The notes below the pieces were generated by a model, which was not told the origin of the DNA, searched no databases, and worked only from the letters and a program-made list of their open reading frames with translations. Both the position numbers and the translations under genes were made by a program. Of a stretch of 64,000 bases of DNA, positions 6,603-59,223 are shown piece by piece. The stretch's first letter is position 1. Each line of letters opens with the position of its first letter. This stretch comes from an uncultured Candidatus Saccharibacteria bacterium (lineage in GTDB: Bacteria; Patescibacteriota; WWE3; 9FT-COMBO-53-11). The stretch is taken from contig CAYGCK010000002.1 in assembly GCA_964348395.1 (NCBI GenBank), forward strand, positions 12,729 through 76,728, read 5' to 3'.

Positions 6603-7498
6603 GAAAACAACCCTTAGTCTCGGTAATTATTCCGGCCTACAACGCCGCGCAATTTCTCCCGGAAACTATTGAAAGCGCGCTCAAGCAAACTTACAAAAAT
6701 ATTGAGGTTATCGTGGTCGACGACGGTTCAACCGATAACACCGAAGAGGTCGTGAAGAAATATCCAGTCAGGTATATCAAAATCGAACATTCTGGTGGCC
6801 CCGCAACTCCCCGAAACGAGGGGGTGCATAAAGCTAAGGGAGAACTAGTTGCGTTCCTCGACTCAGATGATGTCTGGTTATCCAAAAAGTTAGAGAAGCA
6901 AGTTGATTTTTTACGGAAAAGGGATTTTGACTTTGTATCTTGTGATGCCGTAATTATCGATGAGGATGGGAAGAAACTTCGCAAAAGCTATCTTGGTGGA
7001 AGGAAGATTCCAGAAGGAGAGGTTTTCTCTTCTCTCTACCAGGACAATTTCATTATCACTTCCGCTACCCTCGCAAGAAAGACCGTTCTTATAGATGCAG
7101 GTTTATTTGATTCGAGTGTGAATCTTGTCGGGGTTGAGGATTATGATCTCTGGCTCCGGGTCGCGGCAAAGTCTAGATTCGGTTTTCATCCAGGACAACT
7201 GGTTTTATATCGTGAGCGAAGCACAAGCCTTAGCGAAGTTGCTTCGACTGCCGACTTGGGAAAACTGCTTCGTGTTCTTCAGAAAAATTCCGGGTTGGCC
7301 AAACGACTGATGGGTCCGGCTTATAAAGCTAGGCTCTTTGAGTTATTCTGGCCACTTATGGTAGCGGGTGTGAGGGATAAGAGTTTACGGCGGGGTGTTA
7401 AGTACTTCCTGCTCTGTTTACGGTACTCGCCCGTTCTTACCGCAAATAGGATAATAAAGACAGTATCTAAAAGGTTTGTGGGTGAGAATAAGCAGTGA
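6599..7498 (+). CDS. glycosyltransferase family 2
   Basis: LVSVIIPAYNAAQFLPETIESALKQTYKNIEVIVVDDGSTDNT; DSDD (DxD) motif. Confidence 0.85.
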   Translation: MRKQPLVSVIIPAYNAAQFLPETIESALKQTYKNIEVIVVDDGSTDNTEEVVKKYPVRYIKIEHSGGPATPRNEGVHKAKGELVAFLDSDDVWLSKKLEKQVDFLRKRDFDFVSCDAVIIDEDGKKLRKSYLGGRKIPEGEVFSSLYQDNFIITSATLARKTVLIDAGLFDSSVNLVGVEDYDLWLRVAAKSRFGFHPGQLVLYRERSTSLSEVASTADLGKLLRVLQKNSGLAKRLMGPAYKARLFELFWPLMVAGVRDKSLRRGVKYFLLCLRYSPVLTANRIIKTVSKRFVGENKQ

Positions 7499-8682
7499 AA
7501 ATTTTACATACGGTTGAATTTTACGATCCTTCTGTTGGCGGAATGCAGGAGGTGGTCAAACAGCTTTCGGAGCGATTGGTAGAGCTGGGACACGACGTAA
7601 CAGTAGCTACCACAAAACTTCCGAACCGCAGATCCTCGGAGATTAACGGGGTCAAGATTGTCGAATTCGATATTTCTGGCAATTTGGTAAGGGGTCTTTC
7701 CGGCGAGATTGAAAAATATAAAAAGTTCTTGGTCGAGTCAAACTTTGGCGTAGTTGTAAACTTTGCCGCCCAGCAGTGGGCGACCGATATCGCTTTGGAT
7801 ATTCTTGGCGAGATTAAAGCAAAGAAGGTCTTCGTCCCCACGGGGTTTTCCGGCTTTTACCTTCCCGAATACCAAAGCTACTTTAGGAAGATGAAGGATC
7901 GGATTAAAAAGTACGATATGGACGTTTTCCTATCCAACGACTATCGCGATATCAATTTTGCCAGAGACGTTGGGGTGGACAGGAAGAAAATTACCATCAT
8001 TCCCAACGGAGCGAACGAAAAAGAGTTTTTGAGCAAGAGTAAGAGTAAGATTGACGTCCGGGAGCGGTTGGATACTCCAGAGGAGCACTTTCTCATCCTC
8101 CACGTCGGCTCCCACACCGGGGTAAAGGGTCACAAGGAGGCGATTGAAATCTTTTCCCGTGCCAAAATCAAAAACGCCACTTTTTTAATGGTCGGCAATA
8201 TTTTTGGTGGGGGCTGCAGCGTTTACTGTCCTGCCAAAGCCCTCCTTTTTAAATTTTCGCCCAGGCGCTTGCGTGACGGTAAACGTCTTGTGGTTACCCA
8301 GCTCAAGCGGGAGGAGACGGTCGCCGCTTACCAAGCCGCTGATCTTTTTCTGTTCCCTTCCAATATTGAGTGTTCGCCGATAGTTCTTTTTGAGGCGATG
8401 GCTTCCAAGACCCCTTTCCTAACCGCCGACGTGGGCAACTCGGCCGAGATTGTTGAATGGTCGGGCGGGGCCGGAATAGTTCTGCCAACCGACAAGAATA
8501 AAGAAGGTTTTGCCAGGGTGCGGATTCCCGAGTCGATAAAAATTCTAGAGGATATTTACCGTGACGAGAAGCGGTGGGAAAAGATGGCTAAGGATGGATT
8601 TTCCGCTTGGAAGAAGCGTTTTACGTGGGAAAAGATTGCGAAGGAGTATGAGAAGCTCTATGAGAGCTTGGCTAATAGTTAA
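7495..8682 (+). CDS. glycosyltransferase family 4
   Basis: MKILHTVEFYDPSVGGMQEVV N-terminus; C-terminal FPSNIECSPIVLFEAMASKTPFLTADVG is GT4-typical. Confidence 0.8.
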   Translation: MKILHTVEFYDPSVGGMQEVVKQLSERLVELGHDVTVATTKLPNRRSSEINGVKIVEFDISGNLVRGLSGEIEKYKKFLVESNFGVVVNFAAQQWATDIALDILGEIKAKKVFVPTGFSGFYLPEYQSYFRKMKDRIKKYDMDVFLSNDYRDINFARDVGVDRKKITIIPNGANEKEFLSKSKSKIDVRERLDTPEEHFLILHVGSHTGVKGHKEAIEIFSRAKIKNATFLMVGNIFGGGCSVYCPAKALLFKFSPRRLRDGKRLVVTQLKREETVAAYQAADLFLFPSNIECSPIVLFEAMASKTPFLTADVGNSAEIVEWSGGAGIVLPTDKNKEGFARVRIPESIKILEDIYRDEKRWEKMAKDGFSAWKKRFTWEKIAKEYEKLYESLANS

Positions 8683-8740
8683 TGGCAAATGACTAATGGT
8701 TAGGAGCCCTTCGACTACGCTCAGGGTAAACTAAAAACAA

Positions 8741-9613
8741 ATGATTACCGTAGATATTTTTGGAGGTTTAGGGAACCAGATGTTCCAGTATGCACTAGGG
8801 CGGCACCTCTCCCTGAAAAATAAAGACTCGTTGACCCTTAGATATATAGATGTGGGAGCGTTTTCTAAAAGACCGTACGCTCTTGCGTGTTTTAGACTTG
8901 CGCCGAACACAGTAGTGAGGTCAGAGGTTGGAGGTTTGAGGTCAGAGTTTAGGAAAGTTTTGGAGAAGACTATTCCTTTATCTTTATATAGAGGAGAGGC
9001 GCTAATTCGGGAAAGGAGCTTTCGGTTTGACCCGAAGATTTTGAAGCTTAAAAGAGATGTTCACCTGCACGGGTATTGGCAGAGCGAAAAATATTTCAGA
9101 GACATTCGGGAAACGATTTTAGAGGATTTTACTTTTACGCCCCCGCTGAACAGCCGCAACCAAAAAATTCTTGAAAAGATCAAGAAAACAAATTCGGTGA
9201 GTGTGCATGTGCGGCGTGGGGATTATGTTATGGATCCTAAAACCCACGAGTTCCACGGCGTCTGCGGTCCCGATTATTACCAGAAAGCGGTTAAGGTTGT
9301 CTCCAAGAAGGTCGAGAACCCGACCTTTTACTTTTTCTCGGACGACATCAGGTGGGTCGAAAAGAACTTAAAAACCAAGGTCGAGAATACTTATGTGGAC
9401 TGGAACACCGGCGAGAAAAGTTTTGTGGATATGCAACTAATGAGTAGTTGCAAACATCACATTCTCGCCAACAGCAGCTTTAGCTGGTGGGGGGCTTGGT
9501 TAAACCGAAACAAAGATAAAATGGTTGTTGCGCCTAAACAATGGTTCCAAGACCCGAGTATGGATACACGGGATTTAATCCCGGAAGGATGGTTAACGGT
9601 GGATAGTAAGTAA
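8741..9613 (+). CDS. alpha-1,2-fucosyltransferase (GT11 family)
   Basis: N-terminal MITVDIFGGLGNQMFQYALGRHLS is the GT11 (FutC/WbsJ-type) motif I; HVRRGDY motif present. Confidence 0.8.
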   Translation: MITVDIFGGLGNQMFQYALGRHLSLKNKDSLTLRYIDVGAFSKRPYALACFRLAPNTVVRSEVGGLRSEFRKVLEKTIPLSLYRGEALIRERSFRFDPKILKLKRDVHLHGYWQSEKYFRDIRETILEDFTFTPPLNSRNQKILEKIKKTNSVSVHVRRGDYVMDPKTHEFHGVCGPDYYQKAVKVVSKKVENPTFYFFSDDIRWVEKNLKTKVENTYVDWNTGEKSFVDMQLMSSCKHHILANSSFSWWGAWLNRNKDKMVVAPKQWFQDPSMDTRDLIPEGWLTVDSK

Positions 9614-42926: not shown

Positions 42927-43511
42927 TTAGTAGGTCGGCGGTTTAATGAGGGCGAGGGCCTCGGGTGGCCAGTACCGCAGCCAAACCCGACCGATTATAT
43001 CCTCACGATTTACGGCGCCCCATTCCCGAGAGTCCGAGGAACGTTCTCTGTTATCGCCCATGACTACGTAGCCGTCCTCGGTTGAGAAGACCTCTCCTTC
43101 TCTTATCGTTCTGCGGCTGTAGGTTCCGGTTCCTCCCTCAAGATAGGGTTCGTTCAGAAGAAATCCTTCAGGATGCTCGCTGTTTATGATGAAAACATCG
43201 CCGTTTTGGATTTTAACCTTTTCTCCAGGCAAAGCGACTATTCTTTTTATAAAATCCAGGTTCGGCTGCTCCGGCGAGCGAAAGACGATGACCTCCCCTC
43301 GCTCTGGGGGGTGCTTGAGGAGGTTATAGGTGACCATTTCGGTAAGAAGATATTCGCCGTCGTGGAAATTGGGGAGCATTGAGTCTCCTCTTATTTGGTG
43401 TGGGCGGACCAGAAAAAGGTAGAGGGCTAGGAAAATAAGAAGCGCCAGAGCGGCGGTCTCCGCAATTTCGAGTAAAAATGTAATTACGGTCTTGATGAAT
43501 TTAAGAACCAC
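42927..43511 (-). CDS. lepB: signal peptidase I
   Basis: N-terminal TM, GDSMLPNF (Ser box) and VMGDNRERSSDSREWG (box E). Confidence 0.85.
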   Translation of the reverse strand: MVLKFIKTVITFLLEIAETAALALLIFLALYLFLVRPHQIRGDSMLPNFHDGEYLLTEMVTYNLLKHPPERGEVIVFRSPEQPNLDFIKRIVALPGEKVKIQNGDVFIINSEHPEGFLLNEPYLEGGTGTYSRRTIREGEVFSTEDGYVVMGDNRERSSDSREWGAVNREDIIGRVWLRYWPPEALALIKPPTY

Positions 43512-43688
43512 GGGGGTATTATAAAATAGTTAAGCGGCGGTAGTTAAGGATGAGAGTTAGCCCGATAGCGAAAAAGGAGGATCGCTATCGCTCTCGCCTT
43601 GGGCGAGAGACAATGGGACGCGATGTTTAAAAACATCGCTGCCTTTTTGCGGGGGCGAAAAGGAGAACACCTCTTCGAATCCTGCTGA

Positions 43689-43764
43689 TGGGCTCGTAGC
43701 TCAGTGGCCAGAGCGCTCGGTTCACATCCGAGAGGTCATCCGTTCAAATCGGATCGAGCCCACC
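43689..43764 (+). tRNA. tRNA-Val (anticodon CAC), CCA encoded
   Basis: Acceptor GGGCTCG/CGAGCCC; anticodon arm CTCGG-TTCACAT-CCGAG; T-arm CATCC-GTTCAAAT-CGGAT(G); ACCA 3' end. Confidence 0.85.
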
Positions 43765-43772
43765 AGCACGAT

Positions 43773-43790
43773 TAAAGCCTGTAAGGCTTT
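43773..43790 (+). terminator. terminator-like hairpin unit 1 (AAAGCC-tgtaa-GGCTTT + TTTTCATC)
   Basis: 6-bp stem, 5-nt loop, followed by a T-run. It is the first of two covarying copies. Confidence 0.55.
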
Positions 43791-43794
43791 TCAT

Positions 43795-43831
43795 CGAGGG
43801 AGTCGCAGGTTCGAATCCTGTACTCTCCACC
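43795..43831 (+). other. orphan tRNA 3'-half fragment (T-arm GCAGG-TTCGAAT-CCTGT + acceptor 3' strand ACTCTCC-A-CCA), no matching 5' half
   Basis: Canonical T-loop and CCACCA end. No GGAGAGT 5' acceptor strand upstream. An 11-mer TTCGAATCCTG also occurs at 43674-43684. Confidence 0.55.
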
Positions 43832-43836
43832 ACGGT

Positions 43837-43855
43837 TAAATCCCGTGAGGGATTT
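43837..43855 (+). terminator. terminator-like hairpin unit 2 (AAATCCC-gtga-GGGATTT + TTTCATCC)
   Basis: Same architecture and flanks (CCA-ACG-TTAAA...TTTTCATC) as unit 1, with compensatory stem changes. Confidence 0.55.
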
Positions 43856-44109
43856 TCATCCGAAAGGCTGCTGAATCCGCCTCGAGCGGATAATCGCCTA
43901 AGGCGACGGCTCAAATCCAGTAGCACCCACCATTGCTGTTGGAGTCCCGTTTTCATTTCCCCCTTCCGTTTTAGTTATAGTGTTAGTGAGTGGACGGATT
44001 CCGCCCAGGGCGGAAACCTAGCATTTGCTCGCTAACGCTCACAAATGGACGATCGCCTTCGGCGATCTAGCATTAGAGTTACAATTTTCGTAGCTCATCA
44101 TAACGTCTA

Positions 44110-45345
44110 ATGTGGAGAAAGATTGGCACCAACACCGTTTACCAGCTAATTGGCAAAGGCGTAAGCGTTATATCAAGCGTCATCATTGTCTCACTTTTGA
44201 CTCGCTCTTTGGGAGGCGAAAACTACGGCGAATATGTACTTGTGACCTCGGTTCCCGCCTTTCTTTATCTTTTTGTTGATTTCGGTCTAAACGCCATTTT
44301 TCTGAGGGAAATCTCCTCGGCCGGCAGACACAGCAAGAGATTCGGGAGTTTTTTTGCCCTGCGCGCTATTCTTTCGATGATCGCTTTTTTGACGGGTTTG
44401 GCCTTTGCCTTCATCTACACCTCAGAACCTCTGATTCGAACGGGAATGGCAATCGCCCTGACGACCGTTTTTACACAGGGTGCCTTTACCAGTTTCAACG
44501 CTCTTTTTCAGCATTCCTTGCGTTATAACCTCTCGGCCCTAGCCGCCGTGGTCTCTTACGCTTTTGCGGTTTCTGCTGTATTTGTTGGATTTTTATCGCG
44601 AGCTAACTTTCTTTATTTTGTGGGCGTTTGGACGTTGGCGTCTGTTGTTTTGGCGGGGGCCTCTCTTATTTTTGCCCAAAAACTTTCTGAGAAACCCATA
44701 TTCTCTTGGGACAAGGCGTGGGTTAAAAGCATCTTTAAAGCTTCTTTACCCATAGGTTTGATGCTGGTGTTTGCCCAAATTAACGCCCGAGCCGACGTCT
44801 TTCTTCTTCGCGCGCTTGATTCGGCTGAAGCCGTGGGTATATATCGCTTGGCATACAGTGTTTTTGAAAATATTCTTCCCATACCGATATTTTTTGTCAA
44901 CGCTCTTTATCCGGTGATGCTCCGAGATCGCAAACTAGGAATCGCTGCCCTGTTTGGGCGGCTTAAAAAAAGCCTTTCTATACTGGTCTTGGCTTCTATT
45001 GCTTTGGGTGCCGTGATCTTTGTTTTTGCTCCTTGGGTAATCTATATCCTAGGCGGGGAGGAGTTTGCCCCCTCGTTTCTGGTTTTAAGATTATTGGCCG
45101 TTTCGTTTCCTTTGTTTTTCGTGACCGCGCCGTTGCAGTGGACGCTTATTACTGTGGGTAAGGAGCGCGTGTTGCCCGTGATATACGCCGTCGCCGCCGT
45201 GGTCAACGTTTTGGTCAACGTAGTTTTCATTCCTTACTTCTCCTATCTAGCCTCGGTTGCCGCCACAATACTATCCGAATTGCTGATACTCGCCGGCCTC
45301 GTTTATGCTATATCGAGATTCAGAAGCAAATCCGGTGGGGGTTAG
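44110..45345 (+). CDS. polysaccharide biosynthesis/export protein, MOP-superfamily flippase (Wzx-like)
   Basis: 411 aa with about 12 TM helices. N-terminal VYQLIGKGVSVISSVIIVSLLTRSLGGENYGEYVL is typical of Wzx/RfbX. Confidence 0.7.
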   Translation: MWRKIGTNTVYQLIGKGVSVISSVIIVSLLTRSLGGENYGEYVLVTSVPAFLYLFVDFGLNAIFLREISSAGRHSKRFGSFFALRAILSMIAFLTGLAFAFIYTSEPLIRTGMAIALTTVFTQGAFTSFNALFQHSLRYNLSALAAVVSYAFAVSAVFVGFLSRANFLYFVGVWTLASVVLAGASLIFAQKLSEKPIFSWDKAWVKSIFKASLPIGLMLVFAQINARADVFLLRALDSAEAVGIYRLAYSVFENILPIPIFFVNALYPVMLRDRKLGIAALFGRLKKSLSILVLASIALGAVIFVFAPWVIYILGGEEFAPSFLVLRLLAVSFPLFFVTAPLQWTLITVGKERVLPVIYAVAAVVNVLVNVVFIPYFSYLASVAATILSELLILAGLVYAISRFRSKSGGG

Positions 45346-47258: not shown

Positions 47259-47337
47259 GGTCCCGTGGTGTAGTCTGGTCTAACACGCCTGATTGTCAAT
47301 CAGGAGATCGCCGGTTCAAATCCGGTCGGGACCGCCA
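47259..47337 (+). tRNA. tRNA-Asp (anticodon GTC)
   Basis: Acceptor GGTCCCG/CGGGACC; anticodon arm CCTGA-TTGTCAA-TCAGG; T-loop TTCAAAT; CCA encoded; long (11-nt) D-loop. Confidence 0.8.
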
Positions 47338-47338
47338 G

Positions 47339-47412
47339 GCGGGTATAGTTGAGTGGCTCAATGCCACCTTCCCAAGGTGGAGACACGGGTTCAATTCCCG
47401 TTACCCGCTCCA
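47339..47412 (+). tRNA. tRNA-Gly (anticodon CCC)
   Basis: Acceptor GCGGGTA/TACCCGC; anticodon arm CCACC-TTCCCAA-GGTGG; T-loop TTCAATT; CCA encoded. Starts 1 nt after tRNA-Asp. Confidence 0.85.
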
Positions 47413-59072: not shown

Positions 59073-59147
59073 TGGTGGCCCCAAGGGGAATCGAACCCCT
59101 GTTTCCGCCTTGAAGGGGCGGTGTCCTATCCGTTAGACGATGGGGCC
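59073..59147 (-). tRNA. tRNA-Glu (anticodon TTC)
   Basis: Reverse complement GGCCCCATCGTCTAACGGATAGGACACCGCCCCTTCAAGGCGGAAACAGGGGTTCGATTCCCCTTGGGGCCACCA. Confidence 0.85.
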
Positions 59148-59148
59148 A

Positions 59149-59223
59149 TGGTAGGTCCGGAGGGAATCGAACCCTCGACACCCGGCTTAAAAGGCCGGTG
59201 CTCTACCACTGAGCTACGGACCT
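59149..59223 (-). tRNA. tRNA-Lys (anticodon TTT)
   Basis: Reverse complement AGGTCCGTAGCTCAGTGGTAGAGCACCGGCCTTTTAAGCCGGGTGTCGAGGGTTCGATTCCCTCCGGACCTACCA. Confidence 0.85.

Follow-up and report, generated by a model that had tools for sequence, protein, structure and literature searches.

Transfer RNA (tRNA) genes are standard sites of DNA integration, and several types of split or fragmented tRNA genes have previously been documented. In the tRNA-dependent lysogeny of actinobacteriophages (Guerrero-Bustamante & Hatfull 2024), an essential host tRNA gene is split and not rebuilt by a prophage of 40-60 kb, which employs a tyrosine integrase and a common core of ~10 bp (PMC10865867). Displaced tRNA fragments mark the ends of genomic islands (Islander, PMC4383910; PMC9897764), and a tRNA-Thr fragment with a recombinase element was reported for Caldiarchaeum together with fragment and intron models for archaeal tRNA genes (PMC3293823). 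Introns and split tRNA genes are also known from archaea and eukarya (PMC4090602, PMC4033280, PMC3218864). Within the Patescibacteria, group I introns interrupt the anticodon loops of tRNA genes, and the host gene is then missed by standard tRNA finders (PMC13011429). Here we analyze the tRNA-Val(CAC) locus in a stretch of 64,000 nucleotides from contig CAYGCK010000002.1 (hereafter the window; all positions refer to it), whose nearest relatives belong to candidate division WWE3 (Katanobacteria) of the Patescibacteria. This locus is probably a stack of nested tRNA-Val(CAC) genes that have been serially disrupted and replaced by a small, locus-specific cassette. In our search of the literature, we found no report of bacteria in which one tRNA gene is nested within another.

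As in tRNA-dependent lysogeny, the tRNA gene of the window and its relatives is split without reconstruction and a replacement tRNA is supplied; if the other genes of a lysogenic element of this type were lost, exactly the order 5' part, replacement tRNA and 3' part would be left. The insert described here differs in that it measures only ~105-130 bp, contains a tRNA only, is bounded by complementary arms, lacks a common core and is stacked two to three deep. Like the fragments at island ends, the orphan tRNA pieces beside the intact tRNA can be regarded as insertion fossils of a kind that is often misread as odd tRNAs. However, island-end fragments duplicate part of a rebuilt gene and lie kilobases away across an integrase element, whereas the complete gene studied here has the two halves of a different allele on either side, within tens of bases.

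A single complete tRNA was recognized at the locus. This intact, innermost tRNA-Val(CAC) with an encoded CCA end (43690-43765, plus strand) was called by ARAGORN and matched Rfam family RF00005 with 68.6 bits; it is predicted to be the currently active gene of the stack. Neither ARAGORN nor the Rfam tRNA model called a second tRNA in 43400-44200, even at E<=10, and no complete tRNA had therefore been overlooked in the initial annotation of the region. The two orphan tRNA pieces downstream of the intact gene were not recognized as complete cloverleaf tRNAs by either method. They had been described as orphan tRNA 3' ends, and they are indeed derived from tRNA and end in CCA. Yet each is a 3' half and not a bare 3' end, because its alignment to a profile made from 41 tRNA-Val genes and searched with nhmmer begins in the anticodon loop. 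A search with the present tRNA-Val as a single sequence misses both orphans; run for each tRNA of the window against its own flanks, such searches were too insensitive to serve as a control.

Orphan 1 (43792-43832, plus strand) represents the 3' half of an older tRNA-Val gene, no. 1. The stretch 43791-43832 aligns to profile positions 36-77 with an E-value of 1.9e-4, and reads as CAT (end of the anticodon loop), CGAGG (3' strand of the anticodon stem), GAGTC (variable loop), the T arm GCAGG-TTCGAAT-CCTGT, the acceptor 3' strand ACTCTCC, an A and CCA. In a T-arm scan of the window, no other orphan T arm was followed by 7 nt and NCCA. Orphan 2 (43857-43932, plus strand; detected in repeats D8/D2 and as a weak nhmmer match) is the 3' half of a still older gene, no. 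2, with the acceptor allele GGGTGCT/AGCACCC. It consists of CAT, CCGAA, AGGCT, the T-stem 5' strand GCTGA, an insertion, TCAAAT, CCAGT, AGCACCC, A and CCA, and the portion 43894-43932 aligns weakly to profile positions 39-77. The insertion comprises two hairpins (43875-43906) and the linker CGGC (43907-43910) between the T-stem 5' strand and the T loop; the whole orphan folds with -24.1 kcal/mol (z -2.8). Its last 22 nt are identical in 21 of 22 positions to the intact allele of a relative (L085; numbers with L denote loci of the comparative set described below), in which GGGTGCT…GCTGG-TTCAAAT-CCAGC-AGCACCC-ACCA is the intact and sole tRNA-Val gene. A homologous split copy is found in L006 and a similar one in L089, the hairpins of which covary. 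In alignment A3, the CAT, anticodon stem, variable loop, T arm and acceptor of both orphans line up with the intact tRNA-Val, to whose 3' half orphan 1 is ~55% identical over the shared 40 nt (read from this alignment). The 'CAT C…' that follows each hairpin, previously taken as a part of the repeated unit, turns out to be the end of the anticodon loop and the 3' anticodon stem of an older tRNA-Val: CAT-CGAGG-GAGTC in orphan 1 and CAT-CCGAA-AGGCT in orphan 2 compare with CAT-CCGAG-AGGTC in the intact gene, and repeat D8, CATCCGAAAGG, matches the anticodon region of the latter.

The missing 5' half, which the orphans had been thought to lack altogether, is found upstream of the intact gene, in the pieces 43551-43563 and 43663-43676. 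The outermost 5' fragment of an older tRNA-Val (43551-43565, plus strand) consists of the acceptor 5' strand TGAGAGT, TA, the D-stem strand GCCC and GA, and directly follows the promoter-like TATTATAAAAT region. Its TGAGAGT pairs in six of seven positions with the ACTCTCC of orphan 1 (43822-43828), and homologous fragments, GGGGAGT-TA-GCCC, occur at the same position in L005, L089 and L099. A hairpin-rich insertion in the D loop of the old 5' half follows (43566-43662, plus strand; delimited by sequence reading and a minimum free energy (MFE) fold). The remainder of this half, comprising the D-stem 3' strand GAGAAC, A26, CCTC and the initial bases of the anticodon loop, TTC (43663-43676, plus strand), ends at the left break point; its CCTC, the anticodon-stem 5' strand, pairs with the GAGG of CGAGG at 43795-43799, and it aligns with the junctions of L099 and L005 (alignment A2). 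When the pieces 43551-43565, 43614-43618 and 43663-43676 were joined to orphan 1, ARAGORN called a tRNA at a relaxed threshold. The orphans are thus 3' halves starting in the anticodon loop, with matching 5' pieces upstream, and upstream and downstream fragments fit together as parts of one former gene.

The intact gene is separated from the relics by two arms that form a helix. The left arm, GAATCCTGCTGAT (43677-43689, plus strand), provides the leader half and the right arm, GCACGATT (43766-43773, plus strand), the trailer half. They belong to an inverted repeat (I1; 43678-43696 versus 43755-43773, 19 nt, 89% complementary) that extends the acceptor stem and in one pairing register takes in the ACCA of the tRNA. 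When the leader/trailer helices of the window, L099 and L005 were aligned, 20 of 21 cells were paired and three of the seven pairs were compensated, while slid controls reached 19-33%. The junction motif TTCGA(A/G)TC is conserved in L099 and L005; an 11-mer in the leader, which had been interpreted as a copy of the orphan T arm, is simply part of this motif. In the 64-kb window this 11-mer, TTCGAATCCTG, occurs twice versus 1.8 expected (at most one mismatch), which is not significant by itself.

Two hairpin units accompany the gene and its relics, as had been reported, and both were found to have perfect 7-bp stems upon folding. Unit A, AAAGCCT-gta-AGGCTTT+T (43774-43791, plus strand), is the 3' module of the youngest cassette. 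Unit B, AAATCCC-gtga-GGGATTT+T (43838-43856, plus strand), is preceded by the trailer CGGTT (43833-43856 with the trailer) and would be the fossil 3' module of the cassette that carried gene no. 1 in. Each is preceded by TT and followed by CATC. Unit A folds with -6.8 kcal/mol as a 7-bp stem and with -10.8 kcal/mol if a closing CGAU/AUCG helix is included, and unit B with -12.7 kcal/mol. On both strands of the window, A and B are the only perfect AAA…TTT hairpins of at least 7 bp that are followed by T, and the composite unit is not repeated elsewhere in the window. In ~1 Mb of related loci, the composite motif recurs only directly after a tRNA-Val …CCA end (L005/L097 and L099). The bare 8-mer TTTTCATC, found five times versus 3.7 expected, is not significant alone. 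All four hairpin copies have 7-bp stems with two to four G-C pairs (three in each window unit) and fold energies of -4.4 to -8.6 kcal/mol; four of the seven stem positions vary, and every change is compensated. This supports the earlier suggestion of selection on hairpin structure. It should be noted here that the stem comparison rests on per-sequence folds, as MAFFT put the loops and the insertion-bearing 3' halves out of register. Both the arms and the hairpin thus keep pairing through compensatory changes.

To place the locus in context we used a comparative set of 161 related loci (about 1 Mb). A tRNA-Val(CAC) next to the signal peptidase gene is conserved across the Patescibacteria (107 of the 161 fetched loci, with 85 distinct neighbourhoods), and the nested layout is present in roughly a quarter of the 85 distinct loci, spanning WWE3, Woykebacteria, Levybacteria, Gottesmanbacteria and others. 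The order is a 5' half, an inverted repeat, the intact tRNA-Val, the complementary repeat (followed by the hairpin in WWE3) and a 3' half. Partial copies located upstream are 5' parts (profile positions 1-42) and those located downstream are 3' parts (34-77), in eight and ten distinct cases, respectively, and in none was the order reversed. The acceptor strands of the outer genes are complementary in at least six of seven positions in 12 of 14 loci, a result that was reached by 0 of 20,000 cross-locus permutations. In L005/L097, for example, the outer 5' part GGGTCCG…TTCG-TTC is followed by GAGTCGCAAT, the intact tRNA-Val and ATTGCGAC-TAAAGCTT-gaa-AAGCTTT, after which the outer gene resumes with TCAT-CCGAA-AGGTC-…-CGGACCC-ACCA. 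L099 has the same junctions and hairpin with a different inner allele, and in L006/L086 and L089 a different inner gene interrupts the outer one. Nesting is two or three levels deep in the window, L099 and L005. All nested loci have tRNA-Val(CAC) as their inner gene, while the outer gene retains a remnant of a CAC loop or, in L141, has TAC: the outer 5' half of this locus (1891-1928) has the loop sequence TTTACA before the insert and T after it, with the anticodon TAC and not CAC, and its acceptor strands match in 3/7 positions. The window matches contig WVZC01000267.1 of assembly GCA_011772635.1. Independent assemblies show the same contig structure, which is therefore not an assembly artefact.

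The position of the break is precise. In L107, L141 and L411 it lies exactly between positions 37 and 38, the 5' part ending with A37 and the 3' part starting with N38; in L012 a C replaces A37, and the 3' junction lies directly before N38 in L012, L147, L149 and L410. The window, L099 and L005 are not broken at 37/38: here the loop stops after TTC and resumes with (T)CAT. Since the intron option of ARAGORN skips outer genes that overlap the inner gene, the inserts were removed in silico, upon which ARAGORN called tRNA-Val(CAC) in L107, L012 and L411, and Val(TAC) in L141 at a relaxed threshold. In relatives, the start of the outer 5' fragment coincides with that of the simple gene, just after a conserved promoter-like TATAAT box, and the outer copy is therefore taken as the old resident and the inner copy as the newcomer. 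Outer genes range from flawless apart from insertions (L107) to lacking whole arms (L127, L149, L404, L410, L117), which is the pattern expected of pseudogenes of different ages.

The inserts themselves follow a common plan. In WWE3, the TTC of the broken loop is followed by GA(A/G)TC-arm, tRNA-Val, arm-GA(T/C)T and (T)AAAG-hairpin-CTTT, and the loop resumes with TCAT. Woykebacteria-type arms are G+C-rich (consensus CCCGCCTGCC…/…GGCAGGCGGG) and have no extra hairpin. Of the 8-mers from these G+C-rich arms, 14 of 31 lie within 200 nt of a tRNA-Val, and elsewhere in the ~1 Mb they occur at chance level. Because the arm motifs are concentrated at tRNA-Val in this manner, the cassette appears to be locus-specific and not a dispersed repeat. 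It comprises ~105-130 bp and has no gene besides the tRNA.

Comparison of sister genomes demonstrated that the same alleles alternate among the intact, inner and split states. Allele T (GGGTGCT) is the sole copy in L085, the inner copy in L099 and the split copy in L006 and the window. Allele G (GGGGAGT) is the inner copy in L005 and L006 and is split in L089, and a close variant of it is orphan 1 of the window. Likewise, L410 has as its split outer gene the allele that is inner in L107/L101/L404, and L404 has in split form the allele found intact in L405-408 and L413; the inner allele of L410 also lies inside a different outer allele in L411. Taken together, these data show the repeated insertion of short tRNA-Val-carrying DNA into the anticodon loop of a resident tRNA-Val, with the newcomer as the sole intact copy left there.

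The order in the window (tRNA-Val, hairpin A, half 1, hairpin B, half 2) would accordingly reflect two successive insertions. An ancestral gene no. 2 (GGGTGCT/AGCACCC) would have been broken in its anticodon loop by a cassette of ~130 bp, consisting of a left arm, a complete tRNA-Val (no. 1), a complementary right arm and a short A-tract/T-tract hairpin. Later, another cassette of this family would have interrupted gene no. 1 at the same site, bringing in the present gene (43690-43765) and hairpin A. Each insertion would kill the resident gene and at the same time supply its replacement; with the resident destroyed, the newcomer would become indispensable and be kept, while the halves decay. 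The expected outcome is one or more 5' relics, an intact tRNA-Val, hairpin A, 3' half no. 1, hairpin B and 3' half no. 2. The cassette may be small and non-autonomous and depend for its movement on homing-like recombination or on a recombinase or nuclease whose gene lies elsewhere. Its arms could form a recombination or processing helix, and the WWE3 hairpin with its T run may stop transcription of the inner gene. The relics would then be non-functional passengers of the tRNA-Val precursor transcript, and the orphans of the window are most likely inert fossils. Of the options offered in the initial annotation, repeated integration scars come closest to this history, except that the scars are not located at tRNA 3' ends and represent halves of whole earlier tRNA-Val genes, and that the inserted DNA, instead of rebuilding the old gene, carries a complete replacement.

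Several observations weigh against this history. Firstly, the window lacks a 5' half of gene no. 2 and its upstream relic is interrupted by ~100 nt of hairpins; because of the missing half and the large D-loop insertion, extra deletions and insertions are required. Secondly, no recombinase, transposase or homing endonuclease was found in or next to the insert, no locus has a larger, 'full' element between the halves, and the junctions show no target-site duplication or clear common core, direct repeats having been judged by eye. Since neither an enzyme nor a parent element was found, mobility is deduced from the distribution of the cassettes only. Thirdly, inner genes of different alleles are bounded by the same arms, and a simple 'cargo' model leaves this unexplained. 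Fourthly, hairpins A and B miss the consensus criteria of the terminator scan, and no other gene of the window ends with a hairpin of this type, which is thus not a general gene-end signal of this genome. The unit is possibly a terminator-like element of the tRNA-Val gene, its T run lying partly within the stem; given the failed scan criteria and the lack of such hairpins at other gene ends, support for a terminator role is weak. Finally, in L101 and L107 the outer 'exon' segments and D-loop hairpin stems are near-identical (the outer D arm, the anticodon 5' strand, the arms and the D-loop hairpin stem, the hairpin loop having diverged), although the peptidase genes are only 74% identical, and the outer gene of L107 has no flaw except its insertions. 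This pattern could reflect selection on the outer gene and not decay.

The latter observations lead to the rival explanation that survives best, namely that the outer tRNA-Val is still a gene from whose transcript the D-, anticodon- and T-loop inserts are removed, or that the halves serve as small RNAs of the tRNA-half type or as a tRNA-like molecule in two pieces. In its favor, the insert occupies 37/38, the canonical position of protein-spliced introns, in several lineages; the outer gene of L107 is perfect once its two inserts are removed; outer segments and hairpin stems are kept in L101/L107 while the loop and the flanking DNA diverge; and outer acceptor stems are mostly intact. Furthermore, the hairpin modules of the D and T loops keep their pairing while their sequences differ (window, L006, L089 and L099), and Patescibacteria are unusually intron-rich (PMC13011429). 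Like the introns and split genes of archaea and eukarya, the interrupted genes combine a 37/38 break in several lineages with D- and T-loop inserts and a bounding helix. They differ in being bacterial, in containing a whole tRNA of the same anticodon and in being mostly decayed. The group I introns of Patescibacteria share the phylum and the interrupted tRNA loop with our locus, but the window insert is too short and itself a tRNA, and excision would not restore the anticodon loop. Indeed, this loop is unrestorable in the window, L005 and L099, whole arms or strands are missing in the outer genes of L404, L410, L149, L127, L117 and L023, and the acceptor strands of L141 do not match. RNase P and 3' processing of the inner tRNA would moreover cut the outer one, which is redundant because its anticodon is the same as that of the inner gene. 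Inspection of the junctions by eye, in place of a dedicated search, showed no bulge-helix-bulge, and a group I intron was not matched either. All considered, we regard a functional outer RNA as rather unlikely. A small-RNA family derived from tRNA halves, as had been proposed, also finds no support: the relics decay unequally by lineage and match no Rfam family, and the unit is unrepeated elsewhere in the window. Two specific intron types were considered and set aside. For a bulge-helix-bulge intron, the junction helix starts directly at the 5' junction, and 3-nt bulges around a 4-bp helix could not be drawn by eye. For a group I intron, there was no Rfam match, and the insert of ~130 nt is mostly tRNA, versus 200 nt or more with a P1-P9 core.

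The two-hairpin modules, whose stems covary, deserve separate mention; they occupy the D and T loops of outer genes that belong to different alleles. In the window, the D-loop module starts at 43619 with GCGATGTTT/AAACATCGC and a T run, followed by CTTTTTGC/GCGAAAAG; its first hairpin with the T run was flagged as terminator-like by the terminator scan, and homologous modules with covarying stems occur in L006 and L099. Like the pattern in L101 and L107, these modules raise the question of an RNA-level role, in which intervening-sequence-like inserts would leave a functional outer gene in some lineages; we consider such a role unlikely, because most outer genes are irreparably broken. As further observations, a hairpin at the same D-loop site is present in L101/L107, with a conserved stem and a diverged loop. 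T-loop two-hairpin inserts in old 3' halves are found in the window, L006, L089, L074, L021, L010, L125 and L120, and L404 has a larger insert. One hairpin, (A)TCCGCC…GGCGGA(T), is shared by the window, L089 and L120 and is similar to the G+C-rich arms found elsewhere beside inner tRNA-Val genes.

A second explanation holds that the orphans are classical integrase scars: integrative elements or prophages would repeatedly have entered by recombination at the 3' part of tRNA-Val, each restoring the gene with its own copy of that part and pushing the previous 3' end downstream (attL/attR), and would later have been deleted. This would agree with the role of tRNA genes as standard integration sites and of displaced fragments as marks of island ends (PMC4383910, PMC9897764). 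It would also agree with L415: there, the 3' end of this same tRNA-Val borders directly on a prophage-like element that encodes a large serine recombinase, and an orphan T arm with CCA lies at the junction. However, integrase scars predict only 3' duplicates that resemble the rebuilt gene, while here 5' halves flank the gene as well, the inner gene is complete and represents a different allele throughout its stems, and orphan 1 has only the ~55% identity to the present 3' half noted above. In addition, the pieces are separated by only 26-27 nt without a real open reading frame, and neither an element remnant nor an integrase was found. This explanation is therefore considered quite unlikely. 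The L415 element (7323-8902, identical to L414), in a Woykebacteria relative, encodes a terminase small subunit, a UvrD-type helicase, a BanI-type restriction enzyme and a large serine recombinase of 508 amino acids, and the orphan at its junction reads AAGGG-TTCGAAT-CCCTT-TTGGTTC-A-CCA. A recombinase-bearing element beside tRNA-Val was found only in L415, which is not nested. Because this element abuts the same gene, tRNA-Val is also an ordinary integration hot spot. Fragments of tRNA-Val far away from the gene were not found in any locus.

In the third explanation, which revives the idea of a decayed tRNA array with terminators, three or more tRNA-Val genes with their own terminators would have lost parts until one was left intact. 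Each hairpin with its T run does follow a …CCA end, and each would once have followed an active tRNA-Val, but the arrangement is nested and not tandem. A tandem array gives no reason why upstream remnants should be 5' parts only and downstream remnants 3' parts only, why upstream and downstream remnants should fit together as one gene, or why the 5' part should end at 37 exactly where the 3' part starts (38). A precedent for partial 3' copies exists at the tyrT locus of E. coli (rtT), where 178-bp repeats each start with the last 19 nt of tRNA-Tyr. The window is similar to this locus in having repeated units downstream of a tRNA gene, each with a tRNA 3' end. Yet the tyrT units are near-identical tandem repeats of the 3' end of the same gene, whereas those of the window are 3' halves of diverged alleles with matching 5' halves upstream. 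We judge a decayed tandem array to be very unlikely. Chance resemblance or an assembly artefact can virtually be dismissed: although the 8-mer and the 11-mer lack significance by themselves, the composite units occur at this locus only, profile matches support the tRNA halves, the layout recurs in independent assemblies and samples, and the acceptor permutation test gave 0/20,000.

Known types of small mobile DNA were also compared with the cassette, and none fitted. In an integron attC-like site, the GTTAAAT of unit B would fit GTTRRRY, yet unit A has no such fit, and a matching RYYYAAC is lacking. IS200/IS605-like ends are represented by a right-end hairpin, while a similar left-end hairpin is missing. 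A dispersed element resembling a miniature inverted-repeat transposable element or a repetitive extragenic palindromic sequence is contradicted by the restriction of the hairpin unit and the 11-mer to this locus in 64 kb and by the lack of a junction duplication. With respect to a viral origin, searches of IMG/VR with the 14-mer of the G+C-rich arm and the pattern CCA-TTAAA-hairpin-TTTTCAT returned chance matches only, none of them beside a tRNA-Val. Likewise, IMG/VR contained no exact match for the 3'-terminal 32-mer of the inner tRNA-Val allele of the window or for the degenerate 3'-terminal 28-mer of orphan 1.

The tRNA-Val locus sits in an intergenic region of 600 nt, flanked by a divergent gene for signal peptidase I (42927-43511, minus strand) and by a gene of the Polysacc_synt family (44110-45345, plus strand). 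In the simple WWE3 loci L004, L007, L085 and L087, the start codon of the Polysacc_synt gene is located ~10-25 nt after the CCA of tRNA-Val, with no hairpin in between, and this short gap suggests that tRNA-Val and the downstream gene are co-transcribed in these relic-free loci. Upstream of the Polysacc_synt gene of the window, the segment 43985-44085 is strongly structured (MFE -39.5 kcal/mol, z -4.6). Its core, ACCTAGCATT..CGCTA.C.CT.ACAA.TGGACGAT-hairpin-ATCTAGCATT, is kept in the WWE3 relative L089; the segment has no Rfam match and may be a leader or regulatory RNA for the downstream gene. No Rfam family except tRNA was matched at the tRNA-Val locus, and neither ARAGORN nor Rfam called a transfer-messenger RNA there, so that orphan 2 with its hairpins was not taken as a one- or two-piece transfer-messenger RNA or as some other known structured RNA. 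Sub-threshold Rfam matches to 'Plastid-ycf2 5'UTR' on the minus strand (43690-43763 and 43770-43827) were rejected, being antisense images of the tRNA and orphan 1 and not a real member of this family. Orphan 1 alone (43796-43832) folds as an acceptor/T-arm minihelix with -14.3 kcal/mol, and its G:U at a 3:70-like position, A73 and CCA correspond to the alanine identity set. This resemblance is probably coincidental: the '5' strand' of the minihelix is the old anticodon-stem 3' strand plus the variable loop, and the pairing is absent in L005 and other relatives. Elsewhere in the window, tRNA-Asp/tRNA-Gly (47259-47412) and tRNA-Glu/tRNA-Lys (59073-59223) form pairs with 1-nt spacing, and all six tRNA genes encode the CCA end. 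It was also observed that GTDB records titled Gammaproteobacteria, Nanoarchaeia and Bdellovibrionales show the Patescibacteria-type synteny of peptidase and tRNA-Val genes (L010, L013, L015-L017, L020, L021, L064 and others); these are probably mislabelled metagenome-assembled genomes.

The process described here appears to be an undescribed variant of tRNA-gene disruption with self-complementation that is recurrent across the Patescibacteria. More tentatively, and as no more than one possible generalization, the Patescibacteria may harbor a tiny site-specific element of a new kind, a module of ~105-130 bp with a complete tRNA-Val between complementary arms and, in WWE3, a hairpin, which inserts into the anticodon loop of the resident tRNA-Val (at 37/38 in the Woykebacteria-type), replaces its own target and can be invaded again, which would generate 'Russian-doll' genes and a continual turnover of alleles. 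Homing might be the driving force of such turnover, or else an arms race with a nuclease that targets the tRNA or its gene. In a bolder variant of this idea, the hairpin modules of the D, anticodon and T loops would be bacterial intervening sequences that are removed from the RNA, and some outer genes, such as that of L107, would still work. DNA located inside an essential tRNA gene is known to be tolerated either because the gene is rebuilt, as by classical integrases, or because the DNA is spliced out, as in introns. If our interpretation is correct, carrying a full replacement would be a third way, here pared down almost to the tRNA alone and serially repeated. It would also explain the orphan tRNA halves that confuse the annotation of candidate-phyla genomes, and a bacterial tRNA gene that is interrupted at 37/38 as well as in its D and T loops would bear on the debate about the origin of split and intron-containing tRNA genes. 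Moreover, the long leader-trailer helices and nested substrates would provide concrete sequences for the study of precursor processing in organisms with a reduced RNA-processing repertoire. For the Patescibacteria themselves, it would imply a rapid allele turnover of a single-copy tRNA in genomes that are thought to be streamlined and static.

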